Source: Escherichia coli
GTDB taxonomy: Bacteria; Pseudomonadota; Gammaproteobacteria; Enterobacterales; Enterobacteriaceae
DNA: 64,000 nt
Reading direction: 5' to 3' (one strand)
Assembly: GCF_045037415.1 (NCBI RefSeq)
Contig: NZ_CP173438.1
Below, piece after piece: positions 5,136 to 5,500 of this stretch. The translations under genes and the position numbers were made by a program. Under the pieces are notes generated by a model. The model was not told the DNA's origin and made no database searches. It saw nothing but the letters and a program-made list of their open reading frames with translations. Positions within the stretch are counted from its first letter, which is position 1. Every line of letters starts with the position of its first letter.

Positions 5136-5255
5136 TGCCTGGCGGCCTTAGCGCGGTGGTCCCACCTGACCCCATGCCGAACTCAGAAGTGAAACGCCGT
5201 AGCGCCGATGGTAGTGTGGGGTCTCCCCATGCGAGAGTAGGGAACTGCCAGGCAT
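5136..5255 (+). rRNA. rrfD: 5S ribosomal RNA
   Basis: 120-nt tgcctggcggc...ctgccaggcat. Confidence 0.95.
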
Positions 5256-5267
5256 CAAATTTAGCGT

Positions 5268-5343
5268 GCTGATATGGCTCAGTTGGTAGAGCGCACCCTT
5301 GGTAAGGGTGAGGTCCCCAGTTCGACTCTGGGTATCAGCACCA
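5268..5343 (+). tRNA. thrV: tRNA-Thr (anticodon GGT)
   Basis: 76-nt gctgatatggctcagttggtagagc...ggtatcagcacca between the two 5S genes; anticodon loop ttGGTaa. Confidence 0.95.
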
Positions 5344-5380
5344 CTTTTTAGGTTAAAGTTCGGCAGATTAGAAAAGAATT

Positions 5381-5500
5381 TGTCTGGCGGCAGTAGCGCG
5401 GTGGTCCCACCTGACCCCATGCCGAACTCAGAAGTGAAACGCCGTAGCGCCGATGGTAGTGTGGGGTCTCCCCATGCGAGAGTAGGGAACTGCCAGACAT
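5381..5500 (+). rRNA. rrfF: 5S ribosomal RNA, second tandem copy
   Basis: 120-nt tgtctggcggc...ctgccagacat; differs from rrfD at positions 3, 12, 13 and 117. Confidence 0.95.

Follow-up and report, generated by a model that had tools for sequence, protein, structure and literature searches.

Duester and Holmes are said to have been the first to sequence the rrnD operon of Escherichia coli, with its two 5S genes, in 1980. As early as the late 1960s, Brownlee, Sanger and Barrell had reportedly found by RNA sequencing that E. coli 5S rRNA is microheterogeneous at positions 12 and 13, and Pei et al. are said to have found in 2012 that intragenomic 5S diversity is conserved at the level of secondary structure. 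Bacterial rrn operons undergo concerted evolution by gene conversion, which homogenises their copies. That rrnD carries two 5S genes is also stated in a published text (PMC4696680).

We analysed a stretch of 64,000 nucleotides from an E. coli contig (NZ_CP173438.1), referred to as the window, which opens with a complete rrn operon whose features lie on one strand in the order 16S, tRNA-Ile, tRNA-Ala, 23S, 5S, tRNA-Thr, 5S and terminator (Table). The 581 bases spanning the tandem 5S region are 100% identical in many E. coli chromosomes, where they sit between yrdA and yhdZ, and for this reason we assign the operon to rrnD. In a 100%-identical genome and in K-12, yrdA lies upstream, yhdZYX downstream, and tRNA-Thr(GGU) between the two 5S genes. 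An earlier note on this DNA had named these genes rrfD and rrfF; gene order and flanks fit both names, rrfF matches K-12 b3272 at 120 of 120 positions, and the coordinates that the note gave are exact. A Rfam match to StyR-44, a Salmonella Typhi npcRNA family (122.7 bits, 2016-2124), falls in the spacer between tRNA-Ala and 23S and adjoins the 23S 5' end on its upstream side; this match probably represents the leader or processing stem of the 23S and not an independent gene. Regarding the spacer tRNAs, PMC4696680 places tRNA-Glu in the 16S-23S spacer of rrnD and tRNA-Ile/Ala in rrnE; contrary to that text, rrnD of the window and of the 100%-identical strain 4/1-1 carries tRNA-Ile and tRNA-Ala, and K-12 rrnE carries gltV, a tRNA-Glu gene.

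Table. Features of the rrn operon in the window, and the four positions at which its 5S genes differ
Feature	Position	Strand	Source	Details
16S rRNA	145-1686	+		Start of the rrn operon that opens the window
tRNA-Ile	1755-1831	+	ARAGORN	
tRNA-Ala	1874-1949	+	ARAGORN	
23S rRNA of rrnD	2132-5035	+	Rfam RF02541, 2863.7 bits	
ACAGAATT leader	5128-5135	+	Sequence	Immediately 5' of rrfD
rrfD, proximal 5S rRNA	5136-5255	+	Rfam RF00001, 93.2 bits	120 nt; canonical helix I with C3-G117; loop A C12 U13 at 5147-5148
thrV, tRNA-Thr(GGU)	5268-5343	+	ARAGORN; Rfam tRNA, 70.7 bits	Identical to K-12 thrV
AAAGAATT leader	5373-5380	+	Flank comparison	Immediately 5' of rrfF
rrfF, distal 5S rRNA	5381-5500	+	Rfam RF00001, 90.2 bits	120 nt; derived compensated pair U3-A117; loop A A12 G13 at 5392-5393
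Intrinsic terminator hairpin	5511-5538	+	Terminator scan	GGCCATCC/GGATGGCC core with T-run, 12-pair stem; operon end
5S position 3	5138 (rrfD), 5383 (rrfF)			C in rrfD, U in rrfF
5S position 12	5147 (rrfD), 5392 (rrfF)			C in rrfD, A in rrfF
5S position 13	5148 (rrfD), 5393 (rrfF)			U in rrfD, G in rrfF
5S position 117	5252 (rrfD), 5497 (rrfF)			G in rrfD, A in rrfF

Both 5S copies match RF00001 over model positions 1-120, with scores that can be set beside a gathering score of 38. The leader of rrfD matches the sequence around RNase E 'site a' in 9S RNA, and at least 30 nt of the spacer 5' of the 5S gene is common to all seven primary 5S genes of K-12. In the leader of rrfF each position is conserved at 84-100%, with six of the eight at 97% or more, among the 121 Enterobacterales distal-5S matches listed; the same terminator hairpin is found at +14 past the distal 5S in many Enterobacteriaceae. 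The conserved leader and the intact terminator speak for the distal copy undergoing the same maturation as other 5S genes. No promoter-like site was found in 5000-5700, and we infer that rrfD, thrV and rrfF are co-transcribed.

Alignment of the two 120-nt genes confirmed the earlier note's count of exactly four differences. Positions 3 and 117, which it had described as a helix I pair that changes jointly, are indeed opposed in the register of RF00001, where model position 1 pairs with 119, and both of their states are Watson-Crick. When the copies were matched to the Rfam 5S model, pair 3-117 was flagged as non-canonical in neither, and Rfam marks U3-A117 of rrfF as a compensated pair. In each copy all ten pairs of helix I (1-10 with 110-119) are standard, nine of them Watson-Crick and the remaining one G9.U111, and RNAfold closes each gene with this helix. 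The change at 12-13 lies in unpaired multiloop columns corresponding to loop A, the loop placement that the note had given it. When the Rfam consensus is carried over to E. coli numbering, helices IV and V fall out of register because of two alignment deletions; pair counting used the accepted E. coli helices, and only helix I bears on the result. Positions 3 and 117 are thus partners in an independently established structure, the Rfam consensus. When 3-4 substitutions were placed at random in a simulated 120-nt 5S gene, the chance of at least one pair-preserving double was ~0.007-0.013, and with the window considered alone a chance coincidence at 3 and 117 is unlikely.

The window contains one operon, and the eight 5S genes of K-12 served as a proxy for the other rrn operons. 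Among these eight, U3/A117 occurs in rrfF only, with C3-G117 in the other seven, and positions 4-116 of rrfF are identical to K-12 rrfB. U3-A117 is derived and specific to rrfF, and C3-G117 is the ancestral state; besides the other seven K-12 copies, nearly all Enterobacterales proximal copies among the matches listed have it. In 5245 of 5463 E. coli records, the stretch comprising the thrV 3' end, the spacer and rrfF shows an identity of 99% or more. Six of the deviating genomes, picked for their deviation, were inspected, and all six keep U3/A117, their deviations falling at other rrfF positions or in the spacer between thrV and rrfF. U3/A117 is essentially fixed in rrfF of E. coli. An artefact was ruled out by the presence of the same sequence in thousands of independent assemblies. 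The earlier note had inferred structural selection on both copies; this stands for helix I of rrfF, the only copy that changed, where comparative covariation speaks for it, and does not extend to rrfD, which has the canonical pair and provides no independent evidence.

The difference at 12-13 is a polymorphism of loop A, seen both between operons and between strains, and not a fixed difference between rrfD and rrfF; these are weakly constrained positions. At position 12, K-12 has C in rrfC, rrfD, rrfG and rrfH and A in rrfA, rrfB, rrfE and rrfF; at 12-13, K-12 rrfD reads C12 G13 and the window's rrfD C12 U13. The window's rrfD stretch was exact in 19 and one base off in 18 of 40 evenly spaced E. 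coli records, and the C12 U13 allele is present in about half of sampled E. coli. One rrfF gene (L005; NZ_AP027800.1, 452-571) combines C12 U13, the rrfD loop A allele, with U3/A117, and looks like a short partial gene-conversion tract from rrfD that ended before position 3.

We then compared the locus across Enterobacterales. A scan of 100,044 species genomes with an anchor made of the thrV 3' end and 5S positions 23-47 gave at least 120 loci, a pattern-ascertained subset in which positions 23-47 are fixed by design and many proximal copies are interrupted by contig ends. Phylogenetic independence was gauged solely from the number of distinct pair types. Two of these loci have unusual arrangements that look like recombination products of tandem 5S repeats: in Enterobacter ludwigii (L107) a 5S cut off at ~58 is fused to tRNA-Thr and followed by a full 5S, and in Erwinia rhapontici (L056) a triple 5S runs 5S, tRNA-Thr, 5S, tRNA-Thr, 5S. 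L107 was left out wherever gapped copies failed the filters, and L056 was left out of the swapped-pairing set only. L120, whose proximal 5' end is aberrant, was left out of the interior, helix I and loop A divergence sets and of the swapped-pairing set, and was kept in the pair-change counts and the covariation alignment.

Among the matches listed, helix I of the proximal copy is canonical in almost all genera and that of the distal copy varies by lineage. Distal U3-A117 is found in Escherichia, Salmonella, Citrobacter, Enterobacter, Kosakonia, Hafnia, Dickeya and Photorhabdus, U4-A116 in Serratia and Xenorhabdus, A2-U118 in Pectobacterium, Brenneria and Yersinia, A2-U118 with A6-U114 in Providencia, and A7-U113 or A10-U110 in scattered lineages; in Pantoea, Erwinia, Tatumella and others the distal helix is canonical and equal to the proximal one. 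The listed matches also include proximal copies with U3-A117, in Providencia (L051, L055, L061, L074) and Xenorhabdus (L103, L115), both of the Morganellaceae. Their distal copies have C3-G117 with other compensated pairs (A2-U118/A6-U114, or U4-A116), the reverse of E. coli at 3-117.

Covariation was assessed in the 68 distinct distal 5S sequences among the matches listed. Pair 3-117 is CG in 44, UA in 19, UG in 4 and other in 1, the last being a C.U in Morganella; no C.A was found at 3-117 among the distal copies of the matches listed. The U3.G117 wobble occurs in at least five loci (L013, L015, L087, L088, L112), and the one-sided states at 3-117 in the alignment are U.G wobbles, in four distinct sequences. 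Within the same 68 sequences, changes on both sides occur at seven of the ten helix I pairs, the helix is paired in 95% of its cells, and none of 500 shuffles matched the observed covariation values (slid controls, 0-1). Proximal and distal copies were both complete at 50 of the listed loci, where the 20 nt of helix I hold 97 of 148 proximal-versus-distal differences and both-sided Watson-Crick to Watson-Crick changes number 40, against ~18 one-sided ones. At 3-117, then, the old and the new pair are each standard and the double change recurs, and six further helix I pairs have doubles among the matches listed. The compensation at 3-117 is real, with strong backing from this comparison.

Divergence is distributed unevenly along the distal copy. 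Among the matches listed, its interior differs from that of its own proximal copy at 1.07 of 74 nt, against ~3.5 between genera, and its helix I differs from the proximal one at 1.64 of 18 nt, against 0.74 for proximal copies between genera. Loop A (11-22) is hypervariable between genera and well homogenised within genomes in the same matches. The flanks that rrfF has in common with other 5S genes are confined to an AGAATT leader and a CAAAT trailer, a shared length of ~8 nt on the 5' side and ~5 nt on the 3' side.

This pattern probably reflects purifying selection on helix I pairing, through its part in 5S stability, end maturation and assembly. Because the helix must stay paired, substitutions would fix only as pair-preserving doubles by way of U.G. 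The distal copy would keep such doubles because it shares little flank homology, which would make whole-gene conversion rare; conversion of one end alone would leave a broken pair and be purged, so that pairing may act as an epistatic lock. Gene conversion would meanwhile go on homogenising its interior and loop A with those of the other copies. The edge of a conversion tract was considered as a sole explanation and found insufficient, as loop A lies 8-10 nt from the variable pairs and is well homogenised. Nor is the 3' end always an edge of homology: what follows rrfF in K-12-type strains shows homology to the T1 terminator region of rrnA/rrnB, and yet A117 persists. The region is the distal end of E. 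coli rrnD, in which two very probably functional 5S genes stand on either side of thrV and rrfF carries a helix I replacement by a compensated double, an interpretation drawn from sequence comparison.

A different origin for the helix I differences would be selection for difference itself, with distal helices diverging so that neither 5S unit's 5' strand pairs with the 3' strand of the other in the rrfD-thrV-rrfF transcript. Nearest-neighbour equilibrium modelling speaks for this: identical helix I in both copies (CG/CG or UA/UA) gave ~100% swapped pairing, and native pairing in the natural window sequence was 0.13-0.81, varying with how much flank was modelled. Native and swapped helices were scored by unconstrained base-pair probabilities; forced-pair ensemble energies were dropped when an enforced C.A fell below the unconstrained ensemble energy. 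Also in its favour, the distal copies of Providencia and Xenorhabdus still differ at other pairs where the proximal copy has U3-A117, among the matches listed. However, helix I is the same in both copies at no fewer than 14 natural loci (in Pantoea, Tatumella, Siccibacter, Lonsdalea and others), which persist despite modelled 100% swapping, and with one compensated pair swapped pairing is still dominant in the model (median 0.84 among the matches listed). On these two grounds equilibrium pairing can be no strong constraint in vivo; the model, moreover, leaves out co-transcriptional folding, RNase E cleavage and L5/L18/L25 binding, and distal U3 still wobbles (U.G) with proximal G117. We consider selected avoidance of cross-pairing improbable, also in the form in which the rrfD 5' strand is barred from the rrfF 3' strand during folding and RNase E processing; a weaker version would be a general epistatic lock, with compensated pairs at both ends of a repeated gene withstanding gene conversion.

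The long stability of the variant and its presence across genera might instead suggest that rrfF-type 5S is functionally distinct and retained for altered ribosome behaviour. We find this very improbable, since all that differs is one Watson-Crick pair exchanged for another in a stem that varies freely among lineages, other lineages have different pairs or none, and the interior, which makes the protein and 23S rRNA contacts, is identical to canonical 5S. Least credible of all is that rrfF is a dispensable, decaying or neutral copy in which the changes at 3 and 117 are unrelated. E. coli does survive losing some 5S genes, and a single genome offers one double only, with a chance probability of ~0.01. 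Against decay, positions 4-116 are 100% canonical, the gene retains its high Rfam score and its conservation at 99% or more in the E. coli records counted above, the leader is conserved and the terminator intact, and other lineages among the matches listed have compensated doubles at seven helix I pairs in a helix that is kept paired. Conservation within E. coli, helix I covariation and the comparison of K-12 copies effectively refute coincidence.

For E. coli itself the finding has little import: the sequence and annotation of rrfF go back decades, a helix I Watson-Crick swap is textbook covariation, and the rrfD/rrfF pair difference is an already known, ordinary feature, rrfF being the annotated K-12 sequence. 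Our literature search, in which rrfF and rrfD turned up only in strain tables and general statements, found no description of helix I divergence specific to the tRNA-Thr-distal 5S across Enterobacterales; the cross-order pattern is a tidy extension that follows from known principles. The tRNA-Thr-distal 5S of Enterobacterales can be seen as a natural experiment in which the interior is homogenised and the terminal stem evolves like a single-copy locus, and it could be a clean system for studying the limits of gene-conversion tracts and the rates of compensatory evolution. It also cautions against reading intragenomic 5S variants as sequencing errors.

The nearest known counterpart is the rrnD end of K-12 MG1655 (rrfF b3272, rrfD b3274), which has the same order of 23S, rrfD, thrV, rrfF, terminator and opposite-strand yhdZ. 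Besides rrfF, thrV and both spacers are identical to the window, and rrfD is one nucleotide off (G13 in K-12, U13 in the window). The two differ after rrfF, where K-12 has a ~170-bp rrnB-T1-like terminator and a duplicated 5S 3' fragment, both absent from the window. In the window (5501-5545) rrfF runs directly into the GGCCATCC/GGATGGCC terminator; in K-12 (L001) and many other E. coli the ~170 extra bp comprise an rrnB-T1-like terminator and, after it, a second 5S 3' end, AACTGCCAGACATCAAAT, also with A117. This extra segment explains why the alignment over 5040-5620 reaches only 90-95% for ~3000 E. coli records. The short form is probably ancestral, because E. albertii, E. whittamii, Citrobacter, Enterobacter and Hafnia commonly have it. 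The 23S-5S spacer (5036-5135) differs as well, reading ...CATAACGGGACGTGTTGATAAAACAGAATT in the window and ...AACGCAGAAGCGGTCTGATAAAACAGAATT in the spacer common to all seven K-12 operons, with many differing positions; the length of this spacer varies among sampled E. coli.

With respect to the described principles, the classical microheterogeneity concerns the same positions, with A/C at 12 and G/U at 13, and the present data add the assignment of alleles to operons and their frequency sampled across ~5400 genomes, otherwise nothing substantive. The principle attributed to Pei et al., that paralogous 5S copies differ mainly by pairing-preserving changes, holds here too, the present case being minimal, with a single pair. 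Relative to the concerted evolution of rrn operons, the distal copy is alike in that its interior tracks its own proximal copy and not the orthologues of other genera, and unlike in its helix I, which escapes homogenisation.
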